IMG/VR virus record: IMGVR_UViG_3300043104_000334 | DNA length: 64,000 bases | DNA from: a virus | Lineage: Duplodnaviria > Caudoviricetes | Direction: 5' to 3' (one strand) | Shown: positions 1 through 24,129 of the stretch, in pieces | Position numbering within the stretch: the first letter of the stretch is position 1 | How the letters are laid out: every line of letters starts with the position of its first letter | Program-made: the position numbers and the translations under genes | The notes under the pieces: generated by a model | Told to the model about the DNA's origin: nothing | The model's database searches: none | What the model saw: the letters and a program-made list of their open reading frames with translations, nothing else

Positions 1-489
1 GCCAATAAGCTTGTTACACAAGGAATCCCAAACATCTACCTCATCCAAAAGTTTCACAAGCAACTCCGCTCCAAATACATACCGCTCCCGGTCAAACATA
101 GATGTACCAATATCTGCATTGGATACCATAGCTCCTACCTCATTATCATAAACAACATTTCCGTTTATGATTCCGGATATCATGTCTGAGCTTAATCCAA
201 GTACAGTTCTCCATACCGGTGCTCCCCTACCTGCTAAGAAAGGATTAAGGACTCTGCATGTGAGGTCAATATACCCGACCCTTGTATATTTATCCTCGTA
301 TATCTTATCATTGCAGTTAGGGTCATCAGAATGGTCTGCCTTTCCGAAGATTGAGGATGACACAACGTTGTGCTCATAATTATACGCTGTGTCAAGCCGC
401 ACCATAGGAGCCGACGTAATTGACTGTCGTTCACTAGGGGCCATTCGCTTCTTATCATCTTTGTTTATTGGTCTAACAGAAATACTCAT
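1..489 (-). CDS. RNA polymerase beta' (RpoC)-like subunit, N-terminal part; runs off the window start (not in ORF track)
   Basis: Manual translation from ATG at 489 is open to position 1: MSISVRPINKDDKKRMAPSERQSITSAPMVRLDTAYNYEHNVVSSSIFGK...TRVGYIDLTCRVLNPFL...GAELLVKLLDEVDV. This matches RpoC motifs LFCERIFGP, RMGHIELAAPV and GAEAIRELLKRIDL in order. Lies downstream of the beta-like gene. Confidence 0.75.
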   Translation of the reverse strand, partial: MSISVRPINKDDKKRMAPSERQSITSAPMVRLDTAYNYEHNVVSSSIFGKADHSDDPNCNDKIYEDKYTRVGYIDLTCRVLNPFLAGRGAPVWRTVLGLSSDMISGIINGNVVYDNEVGAMVSNADIGTSMFDRERYVFGAELLVKLLDEVDVWDSLCNKLIG

Positions 490-492
490 TGT

Positions 493-1338
493 TTATACCA
501 ATCCCTTCCCGTAATCATGTAAAATCATTTCGAGTGCATGCTCATTTATCTCAGTCTTGTACACAAGTCTTAAGCCGTCAAGTCCTGAAACCGGAACTGC
601 ACAAGTAAAGAACTTTGATAAATCATACACTGTTCTACATGGCATTATGTTGTCATACCCTTCATCAAACAATGCCTGCGTATCTGCATAATCCCAGTAC
701 CCAGTACCTTTCTTGATGAACATGAATGTCGTGGCTACACCTGCACCCTCTCGTTTTAAATCGCAAATCTTAACGTGTGGCAACAACATCTCTGGATAAC
801 TCGCTGGCTCAACATAAGAGTTCTGTGTATACCAAACAGTATCCGTTCCAAGATAGGGAACCCTATCAGAATCCGGTGGTCCCTCATAATCACACATAAG
901 ACTACCGATTTCTTCTTTTGGCAACTTGAGAGCATTTGCGTGCCTTGTGCTAGCACGCATTGATGGCGAACGACCATGTCCCTCATCGAATTCCTTATTG
1001 TTCACAACCTCTTCATCAACACCGTAGAAGCAACCTTTTTCAGGGTTGATTCCACCATTCTCCACAGGAATGATATTACTCATAAGCATACCAAGTTCAA
1101 TGAGTGACATCCCATAGATATCATTCTGTCTGAACAATGAATGCTGATGCACATCGTCCCATCCATGATAGAACCCTATCACCCTCCAGTGTGGAATATT
1201 GTAGTCAAGCAAATCAGTTGAGAATCTGTTATAAACGATCATCAACTCATCTTTACTCAGCTGCTTGCTAAACTGTACAATACCATTTGATACCGTGCAG
1301 CCGGCAAAGCATTCCCCAACTAAAGATATTTCATTCAT
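493..1338 (-). CDS. Putative divergent RNA polymerase alpha (RpoA) N-terminal-domain-like protein
   Basis: Probable start is ATG 1338 (GGAGG RBS, ATGA overlap with upstream stop). Segments YNRFSTDLL..IPHWRVIGF, EMLLPHVKICDL..FIKKGTGY, IMPCRTVY and DGLRLVYKT parallel RpoA GNALRRILL..LPGAAVTAV, EILNPDLHIATL..VEKGRGY, IPVDSIF and DKLTLEVWT. Confidence 0.5.
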   Translation of the reverse strand: MNEISLVGECFAGCTVSNGIVQFSKQLSKDELMIVYNRFSTDLLDYNIPHWRVIGFYHGWDDVHQHSLFRQNDIYGMSLIELGMLMSNIIPVENGGINPEKGCFYGVDEEVVNNKEFDEGHGRSPSMRASTRHANALKLPKEEIGSLMCDYEGPPDSDRVPYLGTDTVWYTQNSYVEPASYPEMLLPHVKICDLKREGAGVATTFMFIKKGTGYWDYADTQALFDEGYDNIMPCRTVYDLSKFFTCAVPVSGLDGLRLVYKTEINEHALEMILHDYGKGLV

Positions 1339-2018
1339 GAAATTCCTCCCGTAATAATGTACCCAATTGCAACCGCAGCAATAGCTACAGCCCAAGCAGC
1401 ATAGGTACAAGATTTATTCTTTGTACGAAGTGTCATAAATCTAATGTTTCTCTTCGTGATTGGAAATAAGACTGGACATCCCTCTACAGTAAGCATATCA
1501 GCAAACAGATGTGAGCAATACCCAACACACAACCCAAGCACACTATACTTCCATAAAGGGAAGTCTGATACACCAATTGCAAAGTAAAGCAATACTGGTA
1601 CTAATAATGTGTGCATTAAACCCCTGTGTCTTGTTGCCCACTGGAATGTTTTGCTATTATAAATAAACTTCTTTGCAACGGCAATTATAATAAATCCAAT
1701 AGCAATAAGCATAAGCTTATCTGCTTCAATACCATAGTTCTTGAATCCAAGCATTGTAACTATTGCAAGTATTCCTGCAATGAGTACACCGGCTAAGATA
1801 AGTAAATTCAATGTCTTTGTCGTAAGGTTTGTAATCACCTTACGCTTTCTACCAATCTTAGTCATATCGTGGTCAATATCAGGAAGCATACATCCAACTG
1901 CCGAAGCAGGCAGGATAAGCAACCCATAAGGGTCACCATATCCTTTTGACACGATACACGCACCTGCTATTCCAAATCCTATTCCAACTACTTTATGTTG
2001 TACACCTGTCATAGCCAT
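1335..2018 (-). CDS. YdjM-family membrane-bound metal-dependent hydrolase
   Basis: Motifs H..G, LPDIDH, HRGLMH, SHLFADMLT.EG.P.LFP; several TM helices. Confidence 0.85.
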   Translation of the reverse strand: MAMTGVQHKVVGIGFGIAGACIVSKGYGDPYGLLILPASAVGCMLPDIDHDMTKIGRKRKVITNLTTKTLNLLILAGVLIAGILAIVTMLGFKNYGIEADKLMLIAIGFIIIAVAKKFIYNSKTFQWATRHRGLMHTLLVPVLLYFAIGVSDFPLWKYSVLGLCVGYCSHLFADMLTVEGCPVLFPITKRNIRFMTLRTKNKSCTYAAWAVAIAAVAIGYIITGGIS

Positions 2019-2079
2019 ACCTTTCTAGAACTACAACGTTCCACGTTATTTTGCATGAGACAGATAGTACCTCATACAA

Positions 2080-5000
2080 TTATTTCTGAAAACTTCCAAG
2101 GATTAGATTTGTTGCATTTTCAAACTCGTCATCTTCTTGACTTGCAACTGTGTCCTCGACAGCTTCAGAAGTATTACTCTTCACAGAGTTCTGCTTTTTG
2201 TTCGTATTCTTCTTGTACTGAACACTTGCCTGCTGAATAACACTAGGCTTCCAGTGCGCAAGCTGAGCACCATTATCCTTGTCAAGTGGAATGAACTCAC
2301 CATCATTAGGTTCACACATTACACCAAGTGCAAGGAAAGAATACAGAAACTGCGTAACTGCACGCCGCTGTCCGGGTGAGTCAATATGGTACTGCTTCCT
2401 GAGTTCGCCCGGGAAATATGTATCAATGTTGAAGTTATCTCTGGCAATGGCGTTATCACATCTTTCGTTTGTCAATTCATGTATATATGCAGATGCGCCA
2501 TAAGCACATAGCGCGTCAATCTCCATTGTACCAAATCTCTGTCCACCACCATTTGATGAACCGTGTGTAGGCGCATCTGTCATCTCACCATAAGGTTCCC
2601 AAATGTTCTGTCCGCCTCTTGCATGAATCTTCTTATGAGACTCCTGTATAAGCTTGAACACATGCAGATAAGCAACCACGATTTCTGTCTCAGTCATGTT
2701 TCCATCGTTATCCGGTAACATAACTTTTGTTGTGCCACGCTCATTGAAACATCCTGCATAAATACGAATGTCGTTGATAACCTCAACTAGATGTTGCTTG
2801 AAAGACTCAACGTGCTTTATGTGACTTTCATTAAGCAAATCACCATGTCTCAAGAATACAGCATTTAGGTCACCGGTAGAATTCATAAGGTCAACAGTAA
2901 GGGACATCAACATAGCAATCTCTTCCTCTGAAATACAGTTGTACGCATCTGATGAAAGTTTAAACTTGCACACATGAGAAAACAGCCCTGTATGAGATTC
3001 CTTTATCTGGCCAACATTCATACGTGAACCTACACCAAGTGGATTAAGACAAATATCCAATGGAAAACCATTTGCAAGACGTGGCATGTTAGATGTCTTT
3101 TCTTTCTTACTAAGAACACCTTTGTTACCATGTCGGTTAGACATCTTGTCACCACCACTAAACGGGTCGATAGAGACCGTATTCAGTGTCAAGCCATAAT
3201 TACCTGCTCTGTGTTCTGACTTGATAGAATCATATTTTTCATAGAATCCATAAGCCTTAGAAAGCGGAATATCTTTCTTCTTACTCTCCATGAATCGCCT
3301 ATCAGAGTAAGCAACACTAATTGAGCTACTAAGTTCCGGAGACATCCATCTACCGTTGTTTGATTTGCTCATACGGTAAGACCGAGTAGAGTTTGGGTTA
3401 CTTGTAAAGTCTTCCTTGTTGATTCTATAGGATGCAAGTCTGTTACACATTGATTCTGAAATATGCGCACCATCCTCATAATTGTAACCATCACAGATGT
3501 AACCAACAAGCGCATTACATCCAAGAGTTAAGATACCATTCTCAGAGATAAAATTTGAAGATACGAGCATCTGACCCTTATGGAATCTCTGCCCTACTTC
3601 AACGAGCACTTTCATCTTTGTTACAGAATAACCGCTATCAAAGTATTCATCAAACTGATAAATGGTACCATCAGAAATATCCTGTGAATCATACCGAACC
3701 GCAAGATGATACTTCTCTTCACGCCAGTTATATTCACATGTAACAACTGTACCGCTATCTTTTGCAATAATTCCAAACTTGTCGTTAAGCCATGCAAACT
3801 GCTCATAAGCACTCGTGATAACATCTGGTTCTTCTGCAAATACCAATCCCTTAGCCTGCTTCTCCTGTGCAACAGCAAAGATAGCACGCGCCGCATCATT
3901 ACTACTCATATACGGAATCGTGGATGACGCATAACTAAGCGACTGACTAGCATTGACATTGACGAAATCAACTTGACTGATAGGTCTGTATGCAAACGTA
4001 GATTTCTCGACAGAGTTTCTGGTGGGTACACGACACTGAACAATCTTAGTGTTATCCTTTACAACGTAATCACTGCCAAACTCAAGCGAGCAGATATCCG
4101 CAATTACATACCGCTCTTCATCCCGGCTAGTAAGAGGAATCTTCTTGTCAGTCTTAATAACTGACTGATTGCCAAGATGCTGTACTCTGTAATACAACGT
4201 AGACATCTTACCATCTGTAGAGATAACAGAGTCACAGCAGGAATTGTAAACTGTACCCATCTTCTGTGACTGCGGAATTTCATAAGCATCAATCTTCGCA
4301 TAAGAACCGATTGCAATTTCACGCTGAGAATCCGCAATGGAATGCTTGTTCGCCGTATAGACATTCACTTTTGTGCAAGCAGACTGATATGCAATAGGAT
4401 TATGGAGATTATCACCCTGCAACCGAACAATACATTTTGCTTCATCCCTAAGGTACTTCCAGAAGTTCTTTGTAAACGGATAGAATTCATTGTCGATTAA
4501 ATCGCGGTCAAGGAAATTCTGTCTCTTACCTTTATAGATTTCCTTGAACTTCCTATTCATTTGTTTGAATCCCTCACGGACTGCATAGCAGAATGCACGA
4601 TGGTACTGTTCCTCAATAGGAATTAAAACCTTTCTGAAACCTGCATCTGCATTTACAATTCGATCAATCCATTTGCCCTCAAACAACTTCACACAGAATG
4701 ATTGAAGTGCCATAAAGTCATACGTAGTGTAAGCACCATTAGCCGGTACAAAATCCTTGTCACAATTAAGGTAATACCAGTCACCATGTGGCTTACCAAT
4801 GTCTTTACCCCGGAACTGTCTGTTAGAGATAATCTCTTCGTAGAAGTTAAGAACTCTTACCTTTCCGCCGGACCTCTTGTCGCTCACCTTAATGGATTCC
4901 TTTCCATAAGCAACAATGACATCAAGCATATCGCTTGTAAGCTGTGTGCCTGATTCATAGATAATTGGTACCGGAAGTTTATCGTAGAACTTGGATGTAT

Positions 5001-6117
5001 ACATTCCATGCTCTTCCGGGAAATACTTTCGCAGCGACTTGGAAATTCTAAGACCTACAGGCGCAAACGGAATAAAGATATCTTCCGCCAGATAGAAACC
5101 CTCGATGTTTGGCACATACTTGATATAGAGTTTATAGACTCCATCGGCATTAAACAACCGAATCATATTACTGTCAACTACTTCACCAGCATGCGCAAGG
5201 ATTCTACCGTTTACAAGTTCCGACTCAACATCTCTTGCAAGTACCTCTCCAACAGCACGGTCAAGTGACAACAACTCATTCAAATCATCCCGAATAGCCG
5301 TATTGTCATAAGAGTCATCACCCTCACCATTCTCTTTGATACGCGTAAGAGTAAGCCTGGGAACGAGTTGTTTCTTGTAGTCGATACCATTTACGCTAGC
5401 AGAGTTAGCAACAATTCCACCAAGTCTCTGCTCTTTCTCTTCTTCATCCTTAAACATGTTAACAATGAAGAAGTTAGCAAACTCTTTAAAGAGTTCTTCT
5501 GGCTCATAGCCCTCATCCTTTGCCATTGCCACGATAAGGTCAAGCAACGTGTACTTAGTCTTAGACGACTTTCCACTCCGGTCAGACATCCGAATTTTTA
5601 ATGCGCTTGCATTATCATCAATCCAGATAGACCGAGTACCATTCTTAATCTTAAGACAAGCCGCCTTTGCAGTATTGTCATTTGCTTCGAACGATACCGT
5701 AGGCTCCTGCTCAAGCATATGTATGAATGCATACTGCTGGTTATCATACTCGATAATACCGTTCTCATAGACATGAGGAAGATTCATAACAGTGACGTCC
5801 TGAGCCTTATCAGGATTGAATCCCGGAATGTCAAACCTTACTGTAACATGATGTGTAAGGTCATTGTACTTTCCCGGGTCTACCTGTTTCACCTTGATTC
5901 TTTCAGCACTCGTTTTGAGCATATCAGGATTGCACTTAATAGCATTGATGAGAGCCGGCATGAACACGTTGAGTACATCCTCAACGGCCCGCTTATCCGT
6001 ATACTTCTTAAATGACTCGTAGACGGGACTTGGCTTCATGTCCGGTATAAGACTAGGTCTTGCAAGTTCATTCTGGTACGCGTATAATATATTTTTATTC
6101 TTGTCATAATCCAGCAT
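2080..6117 (-). CDS. Divergent DNA-directed RNA polymerase beta (RpoB)-like subunit
   Basis: PYMSSNDAARA..AQEKQA, GYNYEDG, GDKMSNRHGNKGV, DICLNPLGVGSRMNVGQIKE and GGQRFGTMEIDALCAYGA appear in canonical RpoB order; 1345 aa. Confidence 0.95.
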   Translation of the reverse strand: MLDYDKNKNILYAYQNELARPSLIPDMKPSPVYESFKKYTDKRAVEDVLNVFMPALINAIKCNPDMLKTSAERIKVKQVDPGKYNDLTHHVTVRFDIPGFNPDKAQDVTVMNLPHVYENGIIEYDNQQYAFIHMLEQEPTVSFEANDNTAKAACLKIKNGTRSIWIDDNASALKIRMSDRSGKSSKTKYTLLDLIVAMAKDEGYEPEELFKEFANFFIVNMFKDEEEKEQRLGGIVANSASVNGIDYKKQLVPRLTLTRIKENGEGDDSYDNTAIRDDLNELLSLDRAVGEVLARDVESELVNGRILAHAGEVVDSNMIRLFNADGVYKLYIKYVPNIEGFYLAEDIFIPFAPVGLRISKSLRKYFPEEHGMYTSKFYDKLPVPIIYESGTQLTSDMLDVIVAYGKESIKVSDKRSGGKVRVLNFYEEIISNRQFRGKDIGKPHGDWYYLNCDKDFVPANGAYTTYDFMALQSFCVKLFEGKWIDRIVNADAGFRKVLIPIEEQYHRAFCYAVREGFKQMNRKFKEIYKGKRQNFLDRDLIDNEFYPFTKNFWKYLRDEAKCIVRLQGDNLHNPIAYQSACTKVNVYTANKHSIADSQREIAIGSYAKIDAYEIPQSQKMGTVYNSCCDSVISTDGKMSTLYYRVQHLGNQSVIKTDKKIPLTSRDEERYVIADICSLEFGSDYVVKDNTKIVQCRVPTRNSVEKSTFAYRPISQVDFVNVNASQSLSYASSTIPYMSSNDAARAIFAVAQEKQAKGLVFAEEPDVITSAYEQFAWLNDKFGIIAKDSGTVVTCEYNWREEKYHLAVRYDSQDISDGTIYQFDEYFDSGYSVTKMKVLVEVGQRFHKGQMLVSSNFISENGILTLGCNALVGYICDGYNYEDGAHISESMCNRLASYRINKEDFTSNPNSTRSYRMSKSNNGRWMSPELSSSISVAYSDRRFMESKKKDIPLSKAYGFYEKYDSIKSEHRAGNYGLTLNTVSIDPFSGGDKMSNRHGNKGVLSKKEKTSNMPRLANGFPLDICLNPLGVGSRMNVGQIKESHTGLFSHVCKFKLSSDAYNCISEEEIAMLMSLTVDLMNSTGDLNAVFLRHGDLLNESHIKHVESFKQHLVEVINDIRIYAGCFNERGTTKVMLPDNDGNMTETEIVVAYLHVFKLIQESHKKIHARGGQNIWEPYGEMTDAPTHGSSNGGGQRFGTMEIDALCAYGASAYIHELTNERCDNAIARDNFNIDTYFPGELRKQYHIDSPGQRRAVTQFLYSFLALGVMCEPNDGEFIPLDKDNGAQLAHWKPSVIQQASVQYKKNTNKKQNSVKSNTSEAVEDTVASQEDDEFENATNLILGSFQK

Positions 6118-6129
6118 AACACTGCTCCT

Positions 6130-6552
6130 TTATACTAAGTTGAATTTGCGAAGTAAGTCTTCGTCAAGCTCCTCCATTTCATCAGCATCATACTCACCCA
6201 TGTTTGTCACTTCTGCAGGCAGTGAAACCGGAACGTTATCACCCTCACAAAGAGGTATAGCAGTGATATCACCAAGGTCATCAACAACCAAGATGATTTT
6301 CTGACCTGCACACACTACCGGCAAAGCAACCTCCCAGTCATCTCCACACTCTGAGATAATGGTCGAGAAATCTTTCTCCGTATTCATGAAGTTACTGAAA
6401 TCTTCAATACCAGAAATCTCAATAACCTTGAGTCCGCCGTAAGCCGTAAAGGCAACCTGTACAAAGTCACCACTAGCCTTTGCGAAGATGCTTTCATCGT
6501 CCTCACCCATGTTCGCAAACCCTACTACCTGTGTCCATTCATTTCTTAGCAT
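6130..6552 (-). CDS. Acidic hypothetical protein, first gene of the RNAP cluster
   Basis: 140-aa ORF with AAGGAGG RBS, downstream of a promoter-motif copy. Confidence 0.75.
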   Translation of the reverse strand: MLRNEWTQVVGFANMGEDDESIFAKASGDFVQVAFTAYGGLKVIEISGIEDFSNFMNTEKDFSTIISECGDDWEVALPVVCAGQKIILVVDDLGDITAIPLCEGDNVPVSLPAEVTNMGEYDADEMEELDEDLLRKFNLV

Positions 6553-6612
6553 AATAATAATGCCCTCCTTATTATTGTTTCTGGAAAGAATAGTTCTATA
6601 ACTCTTCTTTCA

Positions 6613-6645
6613 ATTATATATGTGCTCAGTCAAGTTTCTTCTTCA
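6613..6645 (-). promoter_or_regulatory. Putative promoter TGAA-N19-CATATATAAT upstream of the RNAP cluster
   Basis: Copy 1 of 5 of the bipartite motif; overlapped by a 19-bp imperfect inverted repeat (6621-6639 / 6645-6663). Confidence 0.65.
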
Positions 6646-6666: not shown

Positions 6667-6699
6667 TATTTTACAGGAGGAAAACCCTCCTGTAAAATA
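6667..6699 (-). terminator. Hairpin terminator after the giant adhesin gene
   Basis: Perfect 14-bp stem TATTTTACAGGAGG / CCTCCTGTAAAATA, about 10 nt after the stop codon. Confidence 0.7.
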
Positions 6700-6708: not shown

Positions 6709-9700
6709 TTAGTGTGTACCAGTTGTTGTCAAATCAGTCGTACTCGTATTGTATGCGTCATATACAACAAGAGGTGCCCATTTTGAGTCAATTTTGGTTA
6801 CTACTGTTCCGGTGGAAGAATATACATCAACTCCATTCTCACCTACTGTAATTGTATTGTTGTTACAATTATCTGGCTTATTGTCATTGCTGTAAAGCGT
6901 AATCTTATTATCTTTTCCACCATTCATCAGTCTCGCATCATATTCCAATTCATAGACACTACCCTGAACTGTAATACCAGCAAATGCAACAATAACCGAA
7001 TTCGGATGATCATTCTTAAGTTTTTGATTAGCTGTTAAGACTTCAGTCTTGGAAGTTGCTGCCCCTGCATATGTAGCAATTGTTGAGCTAGGTAAATTCA
7101 ATGTGAAATACCAACGCTGAGATTGCTTCATGAAATTAAGAGCTGTTACACCATTTCCTGTAGACCCACTCATTGCAGTACCGCCGAGCTGATTTGTACC
7201 AGTCCCTTCGGATGCATCTCCATAAAGATAAGATGAACCAATGTAGTCCAAATCATTACAATCAAGAACGATCTTTGATGCAGTACCGATATAATCATAT
7301 TTCTTATATGCAGCTTTATTTATGCCCCAATAAGATAATACAGTATCAGTATAACTCTCTTCAGTCGATGTTGTATTACGACGAGCCGCTTCAGTAGTAA
7401 GGTCAATAGAAAGACCTGTCTCAGTAAGCTTCTTCACATTAGCAGCACTGGTGTCACTATAATATAAAGTGTATGAACCAGAGCTACCAGCATAGAGGTC
7501 AATCGCATAAAACTTACCCTCACTGTAATCATATAGATAATAATGAGGAGTAATTGTCATAACGGCCGTTCTCGTATCTTCACCACTATTCTCATCCGCA
7601 ACTGATGACGGACCATCATCTCCACCAAATGAACCACCCTCAAGTGTATTGATACCATAATAATTACCAATAGTCTCAATATCAAAATAGGATGCATATC
7701 CAATCTTCAACTGTTCTGTTGAATAGGTAGAGTTACTCTGCAGAGAAGCTGCTGTCAATGGTAATGTACCCCACTCGCCTGCCTTACCTAATCCAGTTAT
7801 ACTACCATACCGATAATTGGTTACAGACAATGTAGCGTGTGATTGTGTCTGGGCCGTATGTCCTCTACTTGATAACATAATATCTGCAGTCGTAGTAAGA
7901 ATCTTTACTGGGTAACTCGAATCGACATTATGAACAACATTAGGAATAGACCATGAAGTTAGTGCTTTCTTAAATAATTCTGAATATCTAAAATCACCAA
8001 CATCTTCAAGAGCAAGATTTCCAATACGCCCAACAACCTCAATTGTAGTTGAACAATAAGTTGTATTATCTGCTACAAGGTTATAATCTCTTGTAATGTT
8101 TCTATTCTGATATTGATCAAAGTCGATATTCGAGCCAGCATTAATAGCTATCGTAGCAAATGTTACTGTTGCCGTAGTTGTTTCTTCAGCTGATGTAACA
8201 ACTTGGAATGAGTAATCAAGACCGTACTTAAATTCCGAATCACTTGACAGTGCATTTTGTAGAGCATCTGTCGCTCCATGGAATACACCTGAAGCTGCGT
8301 TAGTTAAACTACCATCTGAAGCTTTAGAAACAGAACCAGTATTGTTCTCAAGTGTATTACATCTATACTCAGAAAGATTTATCCAAGTATTTGCAGGTAT
8401 GGTGACAGTATCACCATTGACCTTTGTACCAATAACCGGGAATGTAAACATAACATCACGTTCTGCAACCCATCTGCCAGTATTCATATTGTTAGTATAA
8501 CCCTTAGCATTTGAGTTGATTTTTCCGGTATTAGAGTCAGCACCATTATAAGTGCATCCAACACCTAGAGATGCTGTAGCTACGCCGGCAATAGAGTCAC
8601 CATACGCATCATAGAAGTCACCGAAATCAGTTATCCATAAATGGACTGTATTTCCTATGACAACGTAGTTATTTTTGTTTGCTTCAGCAACGCCCTGCGT
8701 ACTTACTCGCATATCCTCGCCAGTCTCATCCTCAGCAGGACCGTTTCCATCATAGTCTCCGTATCCATTTCCAATTAACTGAGAATACTGAGAAGATACT
8801 GGGTCATGAATAAGAACATCGTTAAGAACACCATTATCAGAATCTGGTGAAAGCTTTGCTACATACTCAGTTTTTCTATCAGCCGTAATCTTTGGAGCAC
8901 TTACCTGTTCACTATCAACACACTGCTGACACAATGATTGATTACTGAAATCAAGTGCAAGATTATAATAAACATTCACACCGATAGGTGAAGTGTAAAC
9001 ACCATTTTTCGCAGTCTGAATCATTGAAATGTTACTAATTACTAATGCAGTACAATAATTAATTGTTGAACCATCACTAGTGTTTGTGTAACCTGAAACA
9101 TTTCCTGCTCCATTGTTGCTGACATTGGATCCACTACTTATGAGACTACCATTCAAGTATCTATTTACAGTAAAGCTTCCAATATTCGGATATGCAAATG
9201 TTGTATAATAACCATTGAATGTTTGTGTCTGTGCCGTTCCCTCACTCTTCGACACAAAATTTGTTCGTCCCGGTACTGTACTTGTTATTGGTACTGTTCT
9301 ACTATAACACGTTGCTACTATTATGTTGCTATTCTGTGACCATTTTTCACCATTTGTTACATATCCAGATAAGGTAGCCTTTGATAAAGAATCAATAAAT
9401 GATTCTCCTCTAATGATACCGTCAGATGAATATTTTACAGATGGATTAGAAGATACATGTCCAGTATAACCAACGTATAATGTTTTTGCATCGTTAAGAT
9501 TACCAACGTCATCATACTTATCCCAAAATACATTAGTGTTTAGTGTATTCTGCAATTCTTCTGCAGTACCGTATTTATTTGCATGATTGCGGTAATAAGT
9601 CTGTCCGTTCTCAGTAAATCCAAAATTAAACAGATTTATACCACTGTCGATAGCATAAGACTCAGCAAGAATATTCTGAGAACCAACGTTCGCAACACTA

Positions 9701-12700
9701 ATAGACATTGCATCTGAAATAATGTTAGCAGTATAACCGTTTTCTACACTGTTAGCACATTCCCATGCATTTACAACATGAAGTGCCTCTGTTAACGCTT
9801 GGTCGTCTGTTAAAACGTCACCAATCTTACTCTGGTAGTTTGTGTTACCATGACTGCTGTCCGCGTTCCAATGTGCTGTCTGCTTACCATAACTCTTACT
9901 AATAGACACACTATCAATTGCTCCACTATTCGCAAGAGTTCCTACAGAGTTGTCTGCAACAACAGTCATACTGATAGTACAATTTCCTAACCAATAATGT
10001 TCAGCACCATTGTCTCCAGACACAGTTGTAGATGTCCATCCATCTCCACTCTTGTACTGCGGACTTTTGAATTTCGTAAACCAAACTCTACCATTCGAGC
10101 CATTATAATCACCATTGGCTTTCCACATATCAACAGAGATATTTGTGTTGGAAGATGCTTGGCCTACAGCGCTACTCGATATTAAACTCGTATTTACGCT
10201 AGCTATTTCAGCACGCTCAAGTGTATAAACCTTAGCACTTAACAACTCTCGATAAGCATATACATCAACAGTCTCAACAAGTGAAAATGTAAATGTTTTT
10301 GTAGCCGGGTGAATTATATTCTGCGTGGCATGTGTTACTGTACAACCGTATCCAGCTGTATATCCATCACACGTTAATGTATCAGCTGTATAAGTGTATC
10401 CACTATAGGTTTTTGTACCAATCTTTACTGAACAAGCAGTAAGTAAATATCTTTGCTTATTACTTGTTGATGTTGGAGCTGTAACAGACTTTGAAGCTAC
10501 GCTTCCATCCCCTGACGCAGTCACATCACCAGTTGAACAATTGAATGTCACCGTGTAGTTACATGTATGCCCAGATGCTCCCCATGTTGGGTCTACGCCA
10601 CCACTAGCAGTAATTGTAAGAACTGTACCGCAACCTGCACAAGCACTAGAACTCTTCTGTTCTCCATTACCAGCTGACCACTTAGCAGAAGCAGTAAATC
10701 CAGCCACAGAAGTCGAATATGTTACACCATCCTTCGTGCATGTATGTGTCTGACCTGTTGCCGAAGCCATTACACCACCGCGTGTCGATTGCGTACCTGT
10801 CGCCCCACATGTATCACATGACCATGTATTAGTCAGACCGTTAGCATCTGCCGTGCCACTCTTTTCAGTCACATTCTGCGATTTTGAACCAAGTGTGTGC
10901 CCCGGACAACTAAGCGTACATCTTGCATTACTATCCTTACTACTAGCCCAAATATCAGTGATAGTTACCTTGAACTTTATAGTACGCGTGATAGCAGCAT
11001 TCTTGTTTTGTGCATTCTGAGTATCACTCTTATTGTTCTTGTACAATGCGTCTGACGTTTTTAACTGTTGACCATAGGCATGTATACGCCCGCTAAGGTC
11101 AATAGAACAAACACGACCACCTGCAGCTACTGCAAGGTTTTCAGTACTAGGGATTCCCTCAGATACATTCCAATCAGAAGCTAGGCCATCGTATGTGTTG
11201 CTCTTTGTTCCAGCACAGTTAGCGACTATCTCTGCATAGGCTTCAATATCACTTGTTGTACTGAATGTCCAGTCAATATGGTCAACTACATCCGGTCCAA
11301 CCCAGTCATTATAACTGTGACCAACATTATTGGTGTCATTTTCCAAACACCAGTAAGCATCACTACAATCTTCTATATCTGTTGGTATTACACTCGTTGA
11401 ATTAATTGTCACCGTGAACGAAGCAGGTGCTGACATATGACCAGCCTTTTCAGTCTTACTAGTACTCTGAGCAAGCTCTGATATATCAATATAATACTGT
11501 TGTTTTAACAGCTTTTTCAGTTCCGTTCCAGTAACAGTAAATTTATACGTACTAGTAGCACCCTTACTTGATGATGCACTAAACGACACATACGTACCAA
11601 TTGCTTCACTGTGCTTTGTTACTTCATCATATGTAGAAGAAGTACTAGCTCCTCTTATGTACATTCCCTTTATCAGACCGCTTACTCTCGGAGTCGGGGA
11701 TTTATCACATATACTATATTTTGGTGTTGCTTGTACAACTACTGTATATGACGCACTAGTATTCACGGCTTCTAGAGTATCATTATCAGCACCCAAATAT
11801 AATGCAAATGTTGCATTTTGATACTCTCCTTCAGTCAAGACTGTCTCTTCTTCGTGAACACTACTGAGTACACTGAAAGTATAGGATGTCGGACGGTCAC
11901 CAGTACTAAAGCAGTTATGACTTATTTCATTACCTACATCGAAATACTTGTCATAGTACAATATCTTGTTGCCAGTAATTTTTGCAGCTGAAACTGAGAC
12001 ACGCTTATCCTCAGAATCAGTATGCTTTTTAATACTAACTGAGAACTTTACGGAGCTAGCAAGAACAGTAGCATTCTTATTACCTTTTACCTTCTGAATA
12101 AATGATATTGGGTTCTCCTGATTAATTAATTGTTTAATCGCTACTTCATTTGCAGTAAATTGTAATGTTGCTGTCTCACCATAACTTCCAGATGCACTAA
12201 ACTCAATTCCTGATATCCCATTTGTACTCTTAAACTTGTATGCAGTTATCATACTTTTTGCATACGTTGTGTTTTCAGAATCACATGTTCCTTTGTTATA
12301 CTTGTTTGTATTGATTGATATGGAGATATCGTAACTTCCACTTCCAGTTATATTGTCTTTTGTACTATCTGCTGCATCAAAATACATAGTAAACTTAGTT
12401 GACTGTGCAGTACCAGTATACAACTTTGTTTTCGTAAGATGGTTTGTACTTTTTATGGAATAACTAAAATCACCAGCACTCGTGGCTTTCCAGCAGTTAT
12501 GGTTTGTTTTGCTGGTTGCTGACCAGTAGGGATCTACAGAATCACCGTTTTTATCTGTTGGCGCATCAACAGCTGTTACACTGTCGGTACTCGTCACACT
12601 TACAGTAAACTTAAGGCTGTGTGATAATACAGTACAGTCAGCATCCTTGACTCCAAAACTCAATTTAATACCGTCGCCTTTATCACCAAGGTAACCAGCA

Positions 12701-14076
12701 AGTTCTCCACCAGACATACCTTCATATACAAATGTAAGCTTACCATCAACTGTCTTCTTTTCAAATCCCTTTGGAGCAGTAGAAGTATAAGCCTCCACTT
12801 GAGTGGATGAACTGTCACATAGTAATTTCTTACTTAATGTTGTGGGCTCAACAGTTATTGTCACATTATAGCTGTCATTATAGTACTGGCCCTTTTTCTT
12901 AAAGTCTGCAATACTTGTATCTTTACCAACATCTAAATGTACTGTAAATATAGATTCCTGCGCAGTTTTATCAGTAAAGTCAGCCGCAGTGAGATGGTCT
13001 GTTGATGTTACATAGTATGTTAAATTTGGTTGGTTTATCTCCGCTTCCTCATCACAATTGAATACTCCGAAGTAACCACGTGCATAATAGTTCATACTAT
13101 TATACTTTACATACTGTGTACCGCACCATTGTTTCTGCGAACTGCCACCACTAGCTACTACACCCCAGCCCCGTTCATGACCATGATTATGCTGACCATC
13201 TAACCATGCTCTACAATATACATGTGCGTAAGTATTAACTGTACATTTGTTCTTCACTACATCTTTCATGAAGTCTGAAACACTTGAATAGCCTGTAGTC
13301 CAAGCGCTTCCATTACCAATATTCTTTAATATTTGTGATGGTTGATACACATTGATACCACCATCTGAGTACTTTTCTACAAATCCTACAGTCCATGTTA
13401 TGACTGGTAACTTATAATCTGGATACTTATTAGGGCTCTTGTACCAAGCTTTGAAGTTTGTAGCTACATCATCACCAGCAAGTGCTTTTAACACTGCCAC
13501 ATATGTGGTAATCTTATGTTTCTTAGTAGTACTATCATACGGAAATAAGTAGTCACTTATATCATTCTTACTTCCCCATAATATTTTCTGAATCAGTGTC
13601 TTAACTGTAGTATCAGTCACAGACGCTGTCGTCCAGTTATTACTACTATTAACCGTAAATTGTAACAGGTCAGCATTTGGAAGATAATCACTACTACCCA
13701 CAAGATACCCATATACATCTACTCCACTCGATATATTACCAGAATATACGGTATCACTATCTGATAACTTTTTACCAGTAGCCGCTCTCTGATTTACAAT
13801 AGTCTCTGCATCTGCCTCTAATCCATTCATGTTATCACGGCTGCTACAATACGTTGAAAGGTCAAGAGATGATATATAATCTACTTTTATTATAACTGCC
13901 GGACCGGCTTTTGCAATAGTTCCTGAACCACTCCAAGTGCTTGCATTTGCTGATTTACCATCATGAGAGCTTATTGACCCTCCATCACCGGCGCCATATG
14001 CAATAACACTTCCAGCACCAACTAATGCACATATGAGGAACATCAATGCTAATGATTTTTTAAGAATCTTTTTCAT
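6709..14076 (-). CDS. Giant secreted Ser/Thr-rich protein, probable Tad-pilus-associated adhesin
   Basis: N-terminal signal peptide, three ~190-aa internal repeats, Cys-rich segment, C-terminal ...TTGTH, no LPXTG; last gene of the pilin-like run. Confidence 0.7.
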   Translation of the reverse strand: MKKILKKSLALMFLICALVGAGSVIAYGAGDGGSISSHDGKSANASTWSGSGTIAKAGPAVIIKVDYISSLDLSTYCSSRDNMNGLEADAETIVNQRAATGKKLSDSDTVYSGNISSGVDVYGYLVGSSDYLPNADLLQFTVNSSNNWTTASVTDTTVKTLIQKILWGSKNDISDYLFPYDSTTKKHKITTYVAVLKALAGDDVATNFKAWYKSPNKYPDYKLPVITWTVGFVEKYSDGGINVYQPSQILKNIGNGSAWTTGYSSVSDFMKDVVKNKCTVNTYAHVYCRAWLDGQHNHGHERGWGVVASGGSSQKQWCGTQYVKYNSMNYYARGYFGVFNCDEEAEINQPNLTYYVTSTDHLTAADFTDKTAQESIFTVHLDVGKDTSIADFKKKGQYYNDSYNVTITVEPTTLSKKLLCDSSSTQVEAYTSTAPKGFEKKTVDGKLTFVYEGMSGGELAGYLGDKGDGIKLSFGVKDADCTVLSHSLKFTVSVTSTDSVTAVDAPTDKNGDSVDPYWSATSKTNHNCWKATSAGDFSYSIKSTNHLTKTKLYTGTAQSTKFTMYFDAADSTKDNITGSGSYDISISINTNKYNKGTCDSENTTYAKSMITAYKFKSTNGISGIEFSASGSYGETATLQFTANEVAIKQLINQENPISFIQKVKGNKNATVLASSVKFSVSIKKHTDSEDKRVSVSAAKITGNKILYYDKYFDVGNEISHNCFSTGDRPTSYTFSVLSSVHEEETVLTEGEYQNATFALYLGADNDTLEAVNTSASYTVVVQATPKYSICDKSPTPRVSGLIKGMYIRGASTSSTYDEVTKHSEAIGTYVSFSASSSKGATSTYKFTVTGTELKKLLKQQYYIDISELAQSTSKTEKAGHMSAPASFTVTINSTSVIPTDIEDCSDAYWCLENDTNNVGHSYNDWVGPDVVDHIDWTFSTTSDIEAYAEIVANCAGTKSNTYDGLASDWNVSEGIPSTENLAVAAGGRVCSIDLSGRIHAYGQQLKTSDALYKNNKSDTQNAQNKNAAITRTIKFKVTITDIWASSKDSNARCTLSCPGHTLGSKSQNVTEKSGTADANGLTNTWSCDTCGATGTQSTRGGVMASATGQTHTCTKDGVTYSTSVAGFTASAKWSAGNGEQKSSSACAGCGTVLTITASGGVDPTWGASGHTCNYTVTFNCSTGDVTASGDGSVASKSVTAPTSTSNKQRYLLTACSVKIGTKTYSGYTYTADTLTCDGYTAGYGCTVTHATQNIIHPATKTFTFSLVETVDVYAYRELLSAKVYTLERAEIASVNTSLISSSAVGQASSNTNISVDMWKANGDYNGSNGRVWFTKFKSPQYKSGDGWTSTTVSGDNGAEHYWLGNCTISMTVVADNSVGTLANSGAIDSVSISKSYGKQTAHWNADSSHGNTNYQSKIGDVLTDDQALTEALHVVNAWECANSVENGYTANIISDAMSISVANVGSQNILAESYAIDSGINLFNFGFTENGQTYYRNHANKYGTAEELQNTLNTNVFWDKYDDVGNLNDAKTLYVGYTGHVSSNPSVKYSSDGIIRGESFIDSLSKATLSGYVTNGEKWSQNSNIIVATCYSRTVPITSTVPGRTNFVSKSEGTAQTQTFNGYYTTFAYPNIGSFTVNRYLNGSLISSGSNVSNNGAGNVSGYTNTSDGSTINYCTALVISNISMIQTAKNGVYTSPIGVNVYYNLALDFSNQSLCQQCVDSEQVSAPKITADRKTEYVAKLSPDSDNGVLNDVLIHDPVSSQYSQLIGNGYGDYDGNGPAEDETGEDMRVSTQGVAEANKNNYVVIGNTVHLWITDFGDFYDAYGDSIAGVATASLGVGCTYNGADSNTGKINSNAKGYTNNMNTGRWVAERDVMFTFPVIGTKVNGDTVTIPANTWINLSEYRCNTLENNTGSVSKASDGSLTNAASGVFHGATDALQNALSSDSEFKYGLDYSFQVVTSAEETTTATVTFATIAINAGSNIDFDQYQNRNITRDYNLVADNTTYCSTTIEVVGRIGNLALEDVGDFRYSELFKKALTSWSIPNVVHNVDSSYPVKILTTTADIMLSSRGHTAQTQSHATLSVTNYRYGSITGLGKAGEWGTLPLTAASLQSNSTYSTEQLKIGYASYFDIETIGNYYGINTLEGGSFGGDDGPSSVADENSGEDTRTAVMTITPHYYLYDYSEGKFYAIDLYAGSSGSYTLYYSDTSAANVKKLTETGLSIDLTTEAARRNTTSTEESYTDTVLSYWGINKAAYKKYDYIGTASKIVLDCNDLDYIGSSYLYGDASEGTGTNQLGGTAMSGSTGNGVTALNFMKQSQRWYFTLNLPSSTIATYAGAATSKTEVLTANQKLKNDHPNSVIVAFAGITVQGSVYELEYDARLMNGGKDNKITLYSNDNKPDNCNNNTITVGENGVDVYSSTGTVVTKIDSKWAPLVVYDAYNTSTTDLTTTGTH

Positions 14077-18755: not shown

Positions 18756-20756
18756 TTAACCAAAGTTACTTAAATTTGATAATGTGTCAACCATCTCAGA
18801 TACACCAAGAATAAGGACAGGCCCAATAAAGCATCCAATCAAAGCCAATGCTGCAGGAGCAACCGCAATAAGCTTTGCTGAATTCTTCCTTTGTTCAAGT
18901 TCCTCAGTTCTCAACATTTCTGTAATAGTCAACGTCTGTGCCTTGTCCAGTGCCATATCAGAAAATGCATCATGCAGACTAAGAGTATAAACACTACTCT
19001 TAAGTTTTCTCAATAGACGCTTAAAATCATTTACTGGACTTGAAGCTTCAAGTCTGTCCAAGGCAAGCATAGGGTTCGCTATATAAGAGTAGTGACACCT
19101 ACGAATAGCAGCCTTATGAACAGCAGCTTGTTTTTCCAACCAGCATAATGCTTTGTACACGTCCATCTTAGTTTCTGACAATACAATCATCATGGTCTGT
19201 AACTGCGACACATCATTTGTTGCCTCATACATAACAAGCTTCTTACGCATACTAAGTGTAATCTCTGGTATATGCCAACACAGTATTGCTACTACGTAAC
19301 ACACAAGCCACCACCACCAATAATAGTGTGCACCATGGTAGCCTTCATACTTTGTACGTAAGCGTTTCATCTGTTCTGAGGCATCTGAATCAGAAATACC
19401 AGTAATACGCCCTTGGACGTAACTTTGTAGGGTTTCGTCGTCATAGGCTTCATACTCTTCCTGATCCAGCTTCATAAAATCATCATCCATCATTACTATC
19501 TGGTTATGCTGTGTTTCGGTAACTGTCTGTGGAATAAAACTCAGGGAATTGTAATTATTGTAGAAGTTATCCCGCACAGTAATAGTACCAAACAGTAATA
19601 TAACAAAAGCCGCAAGAAACCCTGCAACAGCGTAAATCGGCTTTGCAGTGTAAATATATCTTATGTCTTTTGCGGACAATGAATCATTAAGCATGTTCTG
19701 TAGCTTTACTACAGTTTTATATTTCTTAGGCGAGATTGCATCCACAAAGTCACGAACTTTCTTGTTCTTACTAAGTTCGTCAATGGCTTTTGACTTATCA
19801 ATCTGATTAACGACACTAGGCCTACACGCCGTCGAAATATAATGGTAAGAGAACATGGTTGTAAGCATTATCGCTACATGCATAAACAATCCATAGTACC
19901 CTTTCAATAGGGAAGCTGTACCCGGTATCTGATTTAATAGATACCACTCAAATACAGGCATAATAATAAGACCTGCAAGCGATAACATCTGCAGGGAGTT
20001 AAATGCAATCTTCTGTTTTGTAAGACGCCGAATCTCAGCATCACACTCCTGTCTCAGAGTAGTCATATCCTCTGAGAATGAGTCAGCACCATTTTCATGT
20101 TTAACAGCACCATTCTCATTTACAATGTAACAGGTATTCGCGAATGTTTTGATAATCGCAACCGGATAAGAATGCTGAAACTGTTCAAGTCGTTCGGCAC
20201 CATTTGTATCTGTTAAGATACGATAAATGTTATTCATAGGCGTCTCGAGGTATTTACTCTTTTCAGCATACAAAACCGCTAATGGAATGTTATCTGTCTC
20301 AAGATACTTTTCGCGTACACTCGAGATTGTCATGGAACACTCTTCCATTAGCTTGATATAGATTTTGTCATTTTCTTTCTCTATTACCGACTGATAATAA
20401 ACGTATCCCATAAATCCCATAAGGATTGATACCAAAGCATCACGCATGATTACCATAGATACGACCGGTAGGATTATCATGATAGATACATTCTTCTCAA
20501 ATATCTTTACAGACTCTTCTTTTACCGTGTCAGAATCGTAACACGATAGAGATGCATACATCTCAACAATTCGTCTGAACGGACCACGAATGATTATGTT
20601 GTTATAATAAACAGCAAATCGATTATGCAGTTTCCGTTTTTGCTTAAGCGCGAACTCTTTGTTTTCCTTGGCCTTTGCTTTTGCAGTGAAGTATATAAAG
20701 GCTATAATAGTAGCAACGAGTATGCCTAAGTTCATAAGAATCATTTGCTTAGTCAT
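18756..20756 (-). CDS. Fused TadB-TadC-like pilus platform membrane protein
   Basis: Two TM-flanked helical halves, each ending in a T2SSF-like segment (LRQECDAEIRR; TEMLRTEELEQRK..IAVAP); Tad locus context. Confidence 0.7.
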   Translation of the reverse strand: MTKQMILMNLGILVATIIAFIYFTAKAKAKENKEFALKQKRKLHNRFAVYYNNIIIRGPFRRIVEMYASLSCYDSDTVKEESVKIFEKNVSIMIILPVVSMVIMRDALVSILMGFMGYVYYQSVIEKENDKIYIKLMEECSMTISSVREKYLETDNIPLAVLYAEKSKYLETPMNNIYRILTDTNGAERLEQFQHSYPVAIIKTFANTCYIVNENGAVKHENGADSFSEDMTTLRQECDAEIRRLTKQKIAFNSLQMLSLAGLIIMPVFEWYLLNQIPGTASLLKGYYGLFMHVAIMLTTMFSYHYISTACRPSVVNQIDKSKAIDELSKNKKVRDFVDAISPKKYKTVVKLQNMLNDSLSAKDIRYIYTAKPIYAVAGFLAAFVILLFGTITVRDNFYNNYNSLSFIPQTVTETQHNQIVMMDDDFMKLDQEEYEAYDDETLQSYVQGRITGISDSDASEQMKRLRTKYEGYHGAHYYWWWWLVCYVVAILCWHIPEITLSMRKKLVMYEATNDVSQLQTMMIVLSETKMDVYKALCWLEKQAAVHKAAIRRCHYSYIANPMLALDRLEASSPVNDFKRLLRKLKSSVYTLSLHDAFSDMALDKAQTLTITEMLRTEELEQRKNSAKLIAVAPAALALIGCFIGPVLILGVSEMVDTLSNLSNFG

Positions 20757-20784
20757 TCTTATTTCTCCTTATACATAACTATAA

Positions 20785-21222
20785 TTAGGAACGATTCGAA
20801 TACGAGTAATTCATAGGATTTGTTTCACTACTCCAGAAGTACTCATTACTGTCATCCGGATTATACTTGATATCAAGTGATGTAGGGTAGTCAGGATTCG
20901 TATTGTAGTCAATAGCAAATGTAACCATCTCATTACTATCGTCTATGAAGTAGTAAGTGACAGTGTACTTAGTCCTAACACCTATTTCAGCATAAATGCC
21001 ACGCGAATACAAAACTTCGCATTTATTCACATCATAGACATCTGCGGTTGTAACTCCTGTACATCTCTGTTTTGCTTGATACAATTTAGTGTTTCCATAT
21101 ACAGCAGCAACAACAAGTAAAATCCAAAGTGGAATACAAATGATAGTCAAAATCTTTAATCCGTATCCTGCCAAATCGTTCTGTAAACATTTGTTTCCAA
21201 TTTCATTTGTCCGTACGTCCAT
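20785..21222 (-). CDS. DUF3592-like membrane-anchored protein (paralog 1)
   Basis: TM, then TTADV..Y.VTY, then IKYNPDDSNEY. Confidence 0.55.
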   Translation of the reverse strand: MDVRTNEIGNKCLQNDLAGYGLKILTIICIPLWILLVVAAVYGNTKLYQAKQRCTGVTTADVYDVNKCEVLYSRGIYAEIGVRTKYTVTYYFIDDSNEMVTFAIDYNTNPDYPTSLDIKYNPDDSNEYFWSSETNPMNYSYSNRS

Positions 21223-21225
21223 AGT

Positions 21226-21570
21226 CTAATCCTCCATTTTAACAATAAGATATTCACTAGGATAACTAGGATTATACCGTATGTTTATTGTATCAGGATA
21301 CCCAGTATCTGAATAAGTCTTTCTTACCGAAATTTGTTTATCGCTGTTAACCCGAGCTGTATAGACTACATTGTACCTTGTCTTATCTTTCCAGACTGTA
21401 CCTCTCATATCTTTAACTTCTGTAGCTGTTACAGTAGCAACTGCAGTAGATGTACAGCTTCTTTGCAATCTTACATTACCAGTAATACACAACATGACAA
21501 GAACCGTAAGCACGACTGTGCATGCAACTCTTACCTTGTGTTCATCTGATAACTTGAATCTCTTACGCAT
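21226..21570 (-). CDS. DUF3592-like membrane-anchored protein (paralog 2)
   Basis: TM, then AVATV..YNVVY, then IRYNPSYPSEY. Confidence 0.55.
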   Translation of the reverse strand: MRKRFKLSDEHKVRVACTVVLTVLVMLCITGNVRLQRSCTSTAVATVTATEVKDMRGTVWKDKTRYNVVYTARVNSDKQISVRKTYSDTGYPDTINIRYNPSYPSEYLIVKMED

Positions 21571-21588
21571 GCGTAATCATCCTCCAAT

Positions 21589-21981
21589 CTAGGTCCTGTT
21601 TATCTTTGTCCAATCAACATTTTCACCAGCCTTGTAATAGTAATAATCACTAAGCTGTTTCTGATTGTATTTCACAGTAACATTGTCAGGATGTTCTTCC
21701 GTCCGATATGTTATAACGAACGTAATCTCTTCATTGTTGTTATCCTCAAACGCATAAGTAACATTGTACTTGAAGAATTCACTACTTGAGCCATCACCCT
21801 CATCAGTACATTCATAAGGAAGCTCCTGAACATATTTAACAGTAGCATCCTTATATACTGACTCCAACATACTAGTACTTGGTATCAAATAGGAATAAAT
21901 TAAAATTCCGAAAAATGATGAAAAGAAGCATATTGTGAAAGTTCTCATTCTCTTTCCAGAAGTACTACCTTTTCTTAACAT
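21589..21981 (-). CDS. DUF3592-like membrane-anchored protein (paralog 3)
   Basis: TM, then DATV..YNVTY, then VKYNQKQLSDY. Confidence 0.55.
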   Translation of the reverse strand: MLRKGSTSGKRMRTFTICFFSSFFGILIYSYLIPSTSMLESVYKDATVKYVQELPYECTDEGDGSSSEFFKYNVTYAFEDNNNEEITFVITYRTEEHPDNVTVKYNQKQLSDYYYYKAGENVDWTKINRT

Positions 21982-22033
21982 ATCTTTAGTCTCCTCTCTA
22001 AGTTTCCTTAGACATACGTATTTATGCTAGACC

Positions 22034-22059
22034 TACAGGAAACAATTTTGTTTCCTGTA
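22034..22059 (-). terminator. Hairpin terminator
   Basis: 11-bp stem TACAGGAAACA / TGTTTCCTGTA, 15 nt after the stop of 22075-23436. Confidence 0.7.
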
Positions 22060-22074
22060 AGCTGTCATCCTTAT

Positions 22075-23436: not shown

Positions 23437-23495
23437 GTTTTAAACCCTCCATGTAAGAATACTCAGCAGGTTAAGAGACTCATCTCTCCCTTACA

Positions 23496-23528
23496 CTGAT
23501 ATATGATTTTCAGTTAATTTGTGTTTCA
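23496..23528 (-). promoter_or_regulatory. Putative promoter TGAA-N19-CATATATCAG
   Basis: Copy 2 of the motif, about 60 nt upstream of ATG 23436. Confidence 0.6.
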
Positions 23529-23636
23529 TTTTTTAGTCATGTGAGATATAATATTTATTAATATTAAGTTCAACAAAGTTGACCACTTCCACAGACAAAC
23601 ACATTAAATTCAGTCACAGTTATCTTCCCTGCTCTC

Positions 23637-24046
23637 TTAACATGTCAGCCATTTTACTGCTTCGGTTTCCTGCAGTGAACCTTTGCCATATCTTTCTGCA
23701 ATATCACTAATTCTCTCTTGAATGGTCATATCCTGACCGGCAGGACCCGTAGTGATGTCTGCATAATTCAAAAGCCGCAGCATTGAAGAGTCATATTCTG
23801 TCTGCACAATACTGTGGTAACGAATCTCATTCCAGAACTTGTATCCTTGCTCTTTTAATAAGAATCCACCTTTCTCTGCATGTTCTTCCGGTCTCTTGGA
23901 AAACTCATAACCAATATCATGTAACATACCAAGTATGAACGCTTCATCCGGATTAACGGGATATACATCGTGTTCTGTTTCTGCCATCTTTTTCATTTTG
24001 TTGCTACTGACAAGCTGTGTCTTAATCTATCTTCTGAAATCCTCAT
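23637..24046 (-). pseudogene. HD-domain phosphohydrolase, apparently frameshifted near its 5' end
   Basis: GMLHDIGY...YH...YAD in 23637-23996. The segment MRISEDRLRHSLSVA (first His, GGAG RBS, ATG 24046) is 50 nt upstream and out of frame. Confidence 0.6.
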
Positions 24047-24129
24047 TTGCCTGTCTCTCCATTAATTAAGTAATTAACCTAAAGTCTAAAATAGGCATTC
24101 TATCAGCTTAATGTTTTGAACTGATAAAG

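Follow-up and report, generated by a model that had tools for sequence, protein, structure and literature searches.

A divergent bacterial-type RNA polymerase operon on a probable giant non-cellular replicon of gut Bacillota

Bacterial RNA polymerase (RNAP) assembles along the pathway alpha2, alpha2-beta, alpha2-beta-beta', and the flap-tip helix of its beta subunit binds sigma region 4 and NusA. Among mobile elements, YonO of the SPbeta prophage and the RNAP of yeast killer plasmids are single-polypeptide two-barrel enzymes, minimal or fused, which have neither the accessory domains of beta and beta' nor an alpha subunit, and we know of no bacterial plasmid that encodes beta, beta' and alpha. 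The multisubunit RNAPs of phages are split into 4–5 polypeptides and have no alpha or sigma (PMC7824862, 2021; PMC13282480, 2026); indeed, the annotations of AR9 and YerA41 contain a split RNAP and no alpha. Neither of these reviews describes a bacterial plasmid with all three subunits, and no report of a bacterial element encoding them was found in the searchable literature, outside of which most subscription journals lie. Here, we describe five head-to-tail genes at the left end of a 64,000-nucleotide stretch of DNA (IMG/VR record IMGVR_UViG_3300043104_000334; this whole stretch is hereafter the window), which likely represent the core RNAP operon of a giant non-cellular, probably extrachromosomal, replicon residing in gut Bacillota. 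The five genes are as follows:

1..489, minus strand: first 163 codons of the beta' gene (full gene 1269 aa), which passes the left edge of the window
493..1338, minus strand: homologue of the alpha-subunit N-terminal domain (NTD), 281 aa, without a C-terminal domain (CTD), assigned from fold and gene position
1335..1952, minus strand: homologue of the YdjM-family inner-membrane metal-dependent hydrolases, 205 aa (Pfam PF04307, 6.1e-25)
2080..6117, minus strand: unsplit beta gene, 1345 aa, assigned from Pfam, motifs, PDB match, tree and a model of its N-terminal half
6130..6552, minus strand: small acidic protein (P0004), 140 aa, first gene of the operon, with no assigned function

The operon thus runs from the small acidic protein through beta, the YdjM-like and the alpha-NTD-like proteins to beta'. 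The spacing is tight, with 12 nt between the small gene and beta, an overlap of 4 nt between the YdjM and 281-aa genes, and 3 nt before beta'; the YdjM, alpha-like and beta' genes are probably translationally coupled into one translation unit. The three polymerase genes are full length and have lost neither their catalytic residues nor their main structural elements, and both their sequences and their order persist through a large, deeply diverged family. An initial annotation, made without database searches, had proposed an unsplit 1345-aa beta with catalytic-side motifs, an RpoC-like N-terminus at 1–489 and a probable alpha between the two, and all three assignments hold up as set out below.

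Beta matches Pfam Rpb2_6 at 7.8e-34, with Rpb2_7 slightly below the cut-off, and contains the motifs GDKMSNRHGNKG, NPLGVGSRMNVGQ and GGGQRFGTME, which are invariant or nearly so across 22 relatives. Its best solved relatives in the PDB are bacterial RpoB chains (3.8e-47), and its identity to cellular rpoB is only ~25%, over residues 440–1270 (tblastn, phage and plasmid collections), the highest-scoring cellular matches being from Clostridia. Residues 1–600 do not match any Pfam family. An AF2 (AlphaFold2) model of this region, built on 19 relatives (pLDDT 84), resembles the N-terminal half of RpoB from B. subtilis, S. aureus and C. difficile over 590–620 columns (Foldseek E 1e-11), and the N-terminal half, comprising the lobes, protrusion and fork, is complete as modeled. 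Because the first 600 residues are predicted to fold in this manner, the gene at 2080–6117 is a complete, unsplit beta. The flap measures 112–118 aa versus 154–160 aa in cellular RpoB, which makes it ~42 aa short of its counterpart in Bacillota or Actinomycetota, and it lacks the flap-tip helix motif EERLLRAIFGEKA.

An exact look-up of beta led to a 161,903-bp Logan contig (SRR11792099_1856) of the same element, on which the ORF (open reading frame) at 1–489 of the window extends into a beta' gene of 1269 aa (L001:15629-19438) with Pfam domains Rpb1_1, Rpb1_2, Rpb1_4 and Rpb1_5. The initial annotation had left the DxDGD motif of beta' to be sought in this continuation; it is present as NADFDGD at residue 496, just beyond the window, together with RIDYSGR and AAQAIGEPGTQLTM, and its three aspartates are conserved in six out of six aligned family beta' proteins. 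Furthermore, the blocks of the bridge helix and the trigger loop align with cellular RpoC, the trigger loop having no insert, and beta' matches solved beta' chains in the PDB at 5e-71. The cysteines of the C-terminal zinc site are kept, every family beta' has a deletion that removes the N-terminal Cys4 zinc ribbon, and ~100 additional residues precede the clamp region.

The 281-aa alpha-like protein does not match any Pfam or PHROG family. Its model, built from 23 relatives, is of high quality (pLDDT 91.5, predicted template-modeling score 0.90), and a Foldseek search of the PDB returned only bacterial RNAP alpha chains as top matches (E 2e-8, probability 1.0), with 338 matches at E<=0.001. 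The NTD match covers all 281 aa, that is, the protein stops at the end of the NTD and has no CTD. A profile of the family collects 136 clusters among 1.8 billion representatives and does not reach true RpoA, 10 of the weakest matches lacking the RpoA Pfam domain; homology to alpha therefore rests on the fold and on the gene position. A two-copy complex model of the protein scored 0.01, a value that has no bearing on dimerisation either way.

A word-based search with beta recovered more than 110 clusters at 27–80% identity before the first cellular RpoB was reached at ~25%. Many of these clusters lie on contigs of 150–310 kb, and none is named beyond a generic 'beta subunit'. In five relatives inspected (L082, L083, L085, L087 and G001:C5), with beta identities descending from 54% to 27%, the gene order is the same: a large secreted protein, 1–4 small genes, beta, YdjM, the alpha-like protein (240–310 aa) and beta'. 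The YdjM gene sits between beta and the alpha-like gene in every one of them and is the best-conserved gene of the block, with 51% identity between the window and G001:C5 compared to 37% for beta, while no role of the YdjM family in transcription is known to us. No close relative of the family was found in IMG/VR (single-protein scans), among INPHARED phages or among PLSDB plasmids, and a member is present in one out of 185,579 species genomes.

To place the family, a tree was computed with IQ-TREE (LG+C20, quick search) from 37 rows and 1237 columns, comprising 22 family betas, 13 cellular RpoB from Bacillota, Actinomycetota, Bacteroidota, Pseudomonadota and Mycoplasmatota, and the betas of phages AR9 and YerA41. 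The 22 family betas fall on one side of a branch with SH-aLRT of 98 and the 13 cellular RpoB on one side of another, with SH-aLRT of 100 and a stem length of 1.32. AR9 and YerA41 are separate from both, and the family is internally no less deep than the sampled bacteria. As far as this alignment tells, the family lies outside the sampled chromosomal RpoB and is not nested among them.

The enzyme shares with the RNAP of B. subtilis and C. difficile an unsplit beta and beta' of the same domain order, NADFDGD in beta', GDKxxxRHGNKG, NPLGVxSRMN and GGQRFGxME in beta, the bridge helix, the insert-free trigger loop, the C-terminal zinc cysteines of beta' and an alpha-NTD fold encoded alongside. Unlike the cellular enzymes, its beta is only ~25% identical to RpoB, falls outside the sampled RpoB clade and has no flap-tip helix, its beta' has no N-terminal zinc ribbon and carries ~100 extra residues ahead of the clamp, and its alpha-like protein has neither a CTD nor sequence similarity to RpoA. 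The locus differs as well: the alpha-like gene is placed between the genes for beta and beta', in the company of a membrane-hydrolase gene; there are no ribosomal-protein neighbours, and sigma and omega were not found in the accessible part of the element. Reference genomes carry rplJ, rplL or rpsL beside beta and the window does not, in agreement with the initial annotation; the neighbours of the RNAP genes are a surface protein and pilus and replication genes instead of rplKAJL or rpsL/rpsG/fusA.

With the RNAPs of jumbo phages (phiKZ, AR9/PBS2, YerA41), the enzyme has in common the two-barrel beta/beta' type, a location on a large non-cellular replicon, strong divergence from the host enzyme and the lack of a recognisable sigma gene. 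However, in contrast to phiKZ, AR9 and YerA41, beta and beta' are each a single polypeptide, an alpha-NTD homologue is present, the betas do not group with those of AR9 or YerA41, and no phiKZ-type virion genes are among the profile families listed. YonO and the killer-plasmid RNAP are likewise two-barrel enzymes of mobile elements, but here the full bacterial architecture has been kept. The view that the locus follows neither the cellular nor the phiKZ/AR9 pattern, already put forward in the initial annotation, is thus borne out by the absence of ribosomal neighbours, the placement outside sampled RpoB, the unsplit subunits, the presence of alpha and the separation from AR9 and YerA41.

By analogy with the established pathway for bacterial RNAP, beta and beta' would assemble on the alpha-like protein in the way that they do on cellular alpha, and the assembled enzyme would transcribe the element's own genes, almost all of which lie on one strand, without the host core enzyme. 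Initiation is probably non-canonical, because the flap tip, the beta' zinc ribbon and the alpha-CTD are missing and no gene for sigma region 2 was found in the accessible 80 kb of the element or on the 216-kb relative. No Sigma70 or Rpb6 Pfam match was obtained among the ORFs of the window and L084, and no alpha-CTD-like sequence was detected in the window, L084 or L128. A 108-aa gene following beta', considered as a candidate for omega, gave no Rpb6 match and is strand-rich in sequence by eye. The term 'self-contained', used of the transcription machinery in the initial annotation, consequently goes too far: no sigma or omega was found in the window, the collinear relative G001:C5 has no Sigma70_r2 and gave only sub-threshold r4 matches, and the alpha-like protein has no CTD.

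Promoter recognition would probably depend on a non-canonical factor, candidates for which were seen in relatives only, as small proteins with a sigma-region-4-like helix-turn-helix (HTH), some of them fused to an alpha-CTD. G001:C5 encodes two paralogues of ~250 aa with such an HTH followed by an alpha-CTD (PF03118, 64.5 and 39.4 bits), at L116:28-819(-), corresponding to C5 200028-200819, and L115:19250-19999(-), corresponding to C5 199250-199999. The sigma4-like part gives a sub-threshold Pfam Sigma70_r4 match in one paralogue and is similar by eye in the other. Three weaker alpha-CTD-type proteins are encoded at C5 168871-169278, 160717-161220 and 201975-202856, and homologues of the sigma4-alphaCTD proteins are found on another contig, of 195,720 bp, which probably also carries a family beta. 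In the distant relative L087, the small gene preceding beta is itself directly preceded by a ParB_N gene and a 136-aa Sigma70_r4-only protein (L087:8149-9412). None of the sigma4/alpha-CTD-type proteins was found in the 80 kb of the element described here. The proteins of G001:C5 may supply promoter recognition or the function of the alpha-CTD in trans.

The missing initiation parts also fit a different arrangement, in which beta, beta' and the alpha-like protein mix with host alpha, omega and sigma, or otherwise redirect the host polymerase, and form no independent enzyme. The trigger loop without a lineage-specific insert, as in Bacillota, and the top-scoring cellular matches from Clostridia would agree with it, as would the failure to find sigma, omega and an alpha-CTD in the accessible part of the element. 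Nevertheless, we consider such mixing improbable, since beta shares only ~25% identity with any cellular RpoB, the alpha-like protein does not resemble RpoA at the sequence level, the beta flap tip that forms the sigma region 4 site is missing together with the beta' zinc ribbon, and the three assembly partners are encoded and conserved together.

A related replicon with the same operon is G001:C5, a contig of 215,949 bp binned with a fecal Lachnospiraceae metagenome-assembled genome (MAG) and collinear with the window over the region that extends from beta' as far as the VirB4-like gene. It has a GC content of 35%, 222 of its 252 ORFs with 100 aa or more share one strand, and the GC skew stays negative along the whole contig, without a switch. 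A skew without a switch over 216 kb is unusual for a bidirectionally replicated circle of such size. The ends of the contig share repeats, including the same tRNA-Asn, which fits a circle or a concatemer broken at a repeat. Besides the tRNA-Asn at both ends, there are one tRNA-Met and one more tRNA, and a tmRNA is encoded at L116:7133-7541(-) (Rfam 99.5 bits, tag ATKRPMALAA). The window is organised in the same way, with every sizeable ORF on the minus strand and a GC skew that is negative throughout, and contains one tRNA-Met.

Could the contigs be chromosome pieces of a very divergent or reduced cell, the genes being its ordinary rpoB, rpoA and rpoC? The full set of beta, alpha-like and beta' genes, along with Hsp70, tRNAs, replication genes and, in the relative, tmRNA, would be at home there. 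However, neither the window nor the collinear 216-kb relative with its repeat-sharing ends contains rRNA, the Pfam families listed for the two include none of ribosomal proteins, sigma region 2 is absent from the relative and the related contigs cluster at 150–310 kb. Moreover, the only bin among the 185,579 species genomes with a family member, the MAG holding G001:C5, also has a normal rpoB and rpoA of its own on other contigs. A cellular chromosome is thus extremely improbable. Because of the Lachnospiraceae bin and the Atlas taxa, the host is probably a gut Bacillota.

The gene content of the element is relevant to its nature. The following genes of the window, in addition to those of the operon, could be assigned:

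25231-27090, minus strand: divergent ATPase of the T2SS/T4P family
28575-29612, minus strand: SAF/CpaB-like protein
36088-37095, minus strand: GGDEF diguanylate cyclase
39201-40013: microbial PARG gene
56987-57412: NADAR gene, one of two in the window
60866-62974, minus strand: VirB4-like ATPase (weak TraG P-loop match, 2.9e-7)

The window also encodes DnaB, a primase zinc ribbon, RNase H, an HD protein, a GNAT protein and a surface protein with transglutaminase and Listeria-Bacteroides repeats. Just past its left edge are genes for an M23 peptidase, an NAD-ligase, an Hsp70/MreB-like protein and PolA. The cluster at 18756-31874(-), 36–57% identical to the 216-kb relative and including a 666-aa protein with a weak TadB-like match, is probably a Tad-like pilus or secretion module. 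Thus, the context of Tad, VirB4 and replication genes noted in the initial annotation is confirmed by the Tad-like ATPase, the SAF/CpaB-like protein, the VirB4-like ATPase, DnaB and primase. By contrast, calling the element 'conjugative' is not supported, since no MOBP relaxase or Rep_trans is present on the 216-kb relative (other relaxase families were not searched for) and the VirB4 call itself is a weak TraG P-loop match. Among the families listed for the relative are FtsK/SpoIIIE (three copies), PolA (two), a clamp loader, UvrD, Hsp70, T2SSE, PilZ (two), an MCP signalling domain, PspA, VWA, LRR and endolysins. Together, the GGDEF protein of the window and the PilZ and MCP domains of the relative provide these elements with cyclic di-GMP and chemotaxis-type genes of their own. 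The 161,903-bp Logan contig and the source contig seem to stop at the same distance from beta, ~98 kb downstream of it.

On this evidence, we tentatively favour a plasmid-like element, equipped with a Tad-like pilus and machinery of the VirB4/FtsK type, over a tailed phage. A jumbo phage or other virus, with a capsid, portal and terminase too divergent to recognise and a polymerase that frees infection from the host RNAP as in phiKZ and AR9, is the most serious competitor, although we regard it as unlikely. It would explain the strict one-strand layout and the GC skew uniform over 216 kb, the tRNAs and tmRNA reminiscent of huge phages, the replication set of PolA, DnaB, primase, ligase and clamp loader, the several cell-wall hydrolases with phage-tail lysozyme domains among them, and NADAR, PARG and GNAT genes resembling counter-defence genes. 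Furthermore, the 216-kb relative has a Phage_portal match of 15.9 bits, below the cut-off, and two independent contigs seem to stop at the same point. Nevertheless, capsid, terminase, portal and tail families are missing from the Pfam and PHROG families listed for either element. In the window, no virion family was found with PHROGs (29 ORFs) or with Pfam (35 window ORFs singly and 44 smaller window and L084 ORFs batched). On the relative, sequence profiles gave no Terminase_6N and no HK97 capsid (Phage_capsid), and none of the families shown for its 119 ORFs of at least 200 aa, namely the top 25 of 68 in PHROG and the top 25 of 49 in Pfam, is a virion family. The family is likewise absent from IMG/VR and INPHARED, and the Tad-like ATPase, the CpaB-like and VirB4-like proteins, three FtsK-like ATPases, the chemotaxis and cyclic di-GMP genes and the giant surface protein suit a resident element better.

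Several points weigh against reading the locus as the core RNAP operon of an autonomous, non-cellular replicon. Sigma, omega and an alpha-CTD were not found in the accessible 80 kb of an element of ~200 kb, and the sigma4-alphaCTD fusions are seen in a single subclade. A weak virion match on G001:C5 could fall outside the top 25 of 68 and of 49 families. The tree is a quick search with long branches and is unrooted, there being no outgroup, and binning with a MAG does not prove the host.

If the non-cellular reading is true, the family is a third, independent sample of divergence of the alpha2-beta-beta' enzyme, in which the flap tip, zinc ribbon and alpha-CTD were lost and alpha-mediated assembly was kept. 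It raises the question of how a bacterial-type core finds promoters without a recognisable sigma, and has implications for the origin of such polymerases, which may be cellular genes that escaped or old lineages that mobile replicons have preserved. Lachnospiraceae-rich gut communities would also contain a large class of replicons that is uncatalogued and is missed by current phage and plasmid classifiers. More speculatively, these elements might constitute an unrecognised class of giant autonomous replicons of gut Bacillota that could be recognised neither as phages nor as plasmids, with a complete, deep-branching beta-alpha-beta' RNAP outside sampled RpoB and non-sigma70 initiation, for example by sigma4-HTH/alpha-CTD fusions acting in trans, possibly membrane-tethered through the YdjM-like protein.

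A few further features of the window can be mentioned. PARG, NADAR and GNAT are enzymes of the kind that can reverse ADP-ribosylation and may counter host defence. In the region 52035-62974(-), the VirB4-like ATPase is followed by cell-wall hydrolases, namely, two phage-tail-lysozyme domains, an M15 and a C39-like peptidase. The ORF at 37092-37997, with a weak match to the TFIIB zinc ribbon, was considered as a transcription factor and rejected, as it consists of a zinc ribbon, two transmembrane helices and an outer domain. The small acidic protein at 6130..6552 has no Pfam or PHROG match and no BLAST counterpart in the 216-kb relative, and its only similarity, a weak one, is to the small genes located ahead of beta in L082 and L083. 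Upstream of it are the following features:

6611..6623, minus strand: -10-like motif ACATATATAATTG, a candidate promoter 59 nt upstream of the first operon gene
6669..6697, minus strand: perfect 12-bp hairpin with no U-tract, directly after the upstream giant gene
6709..14076, minus strand: secreted S/T/G/N-rich surface protein, 2455 aa, assigned from signal peptide and composition; not part of the polymerase

The 13-mer of the candidate promoter occurs in the window as one exact copy and two copies with one mismatch, an enrichment not clearly above chance, as three copies were reached in 4 out of 100 shuffles and intergenic k-mers were not enriched. The hairpin may act as a terminator or a processing site. 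The surface protein has no Pfam or PHROG match, and a counterpart of 2100–2600 aa is located 1–4 small genes upstream of beta in all relatives inspected.

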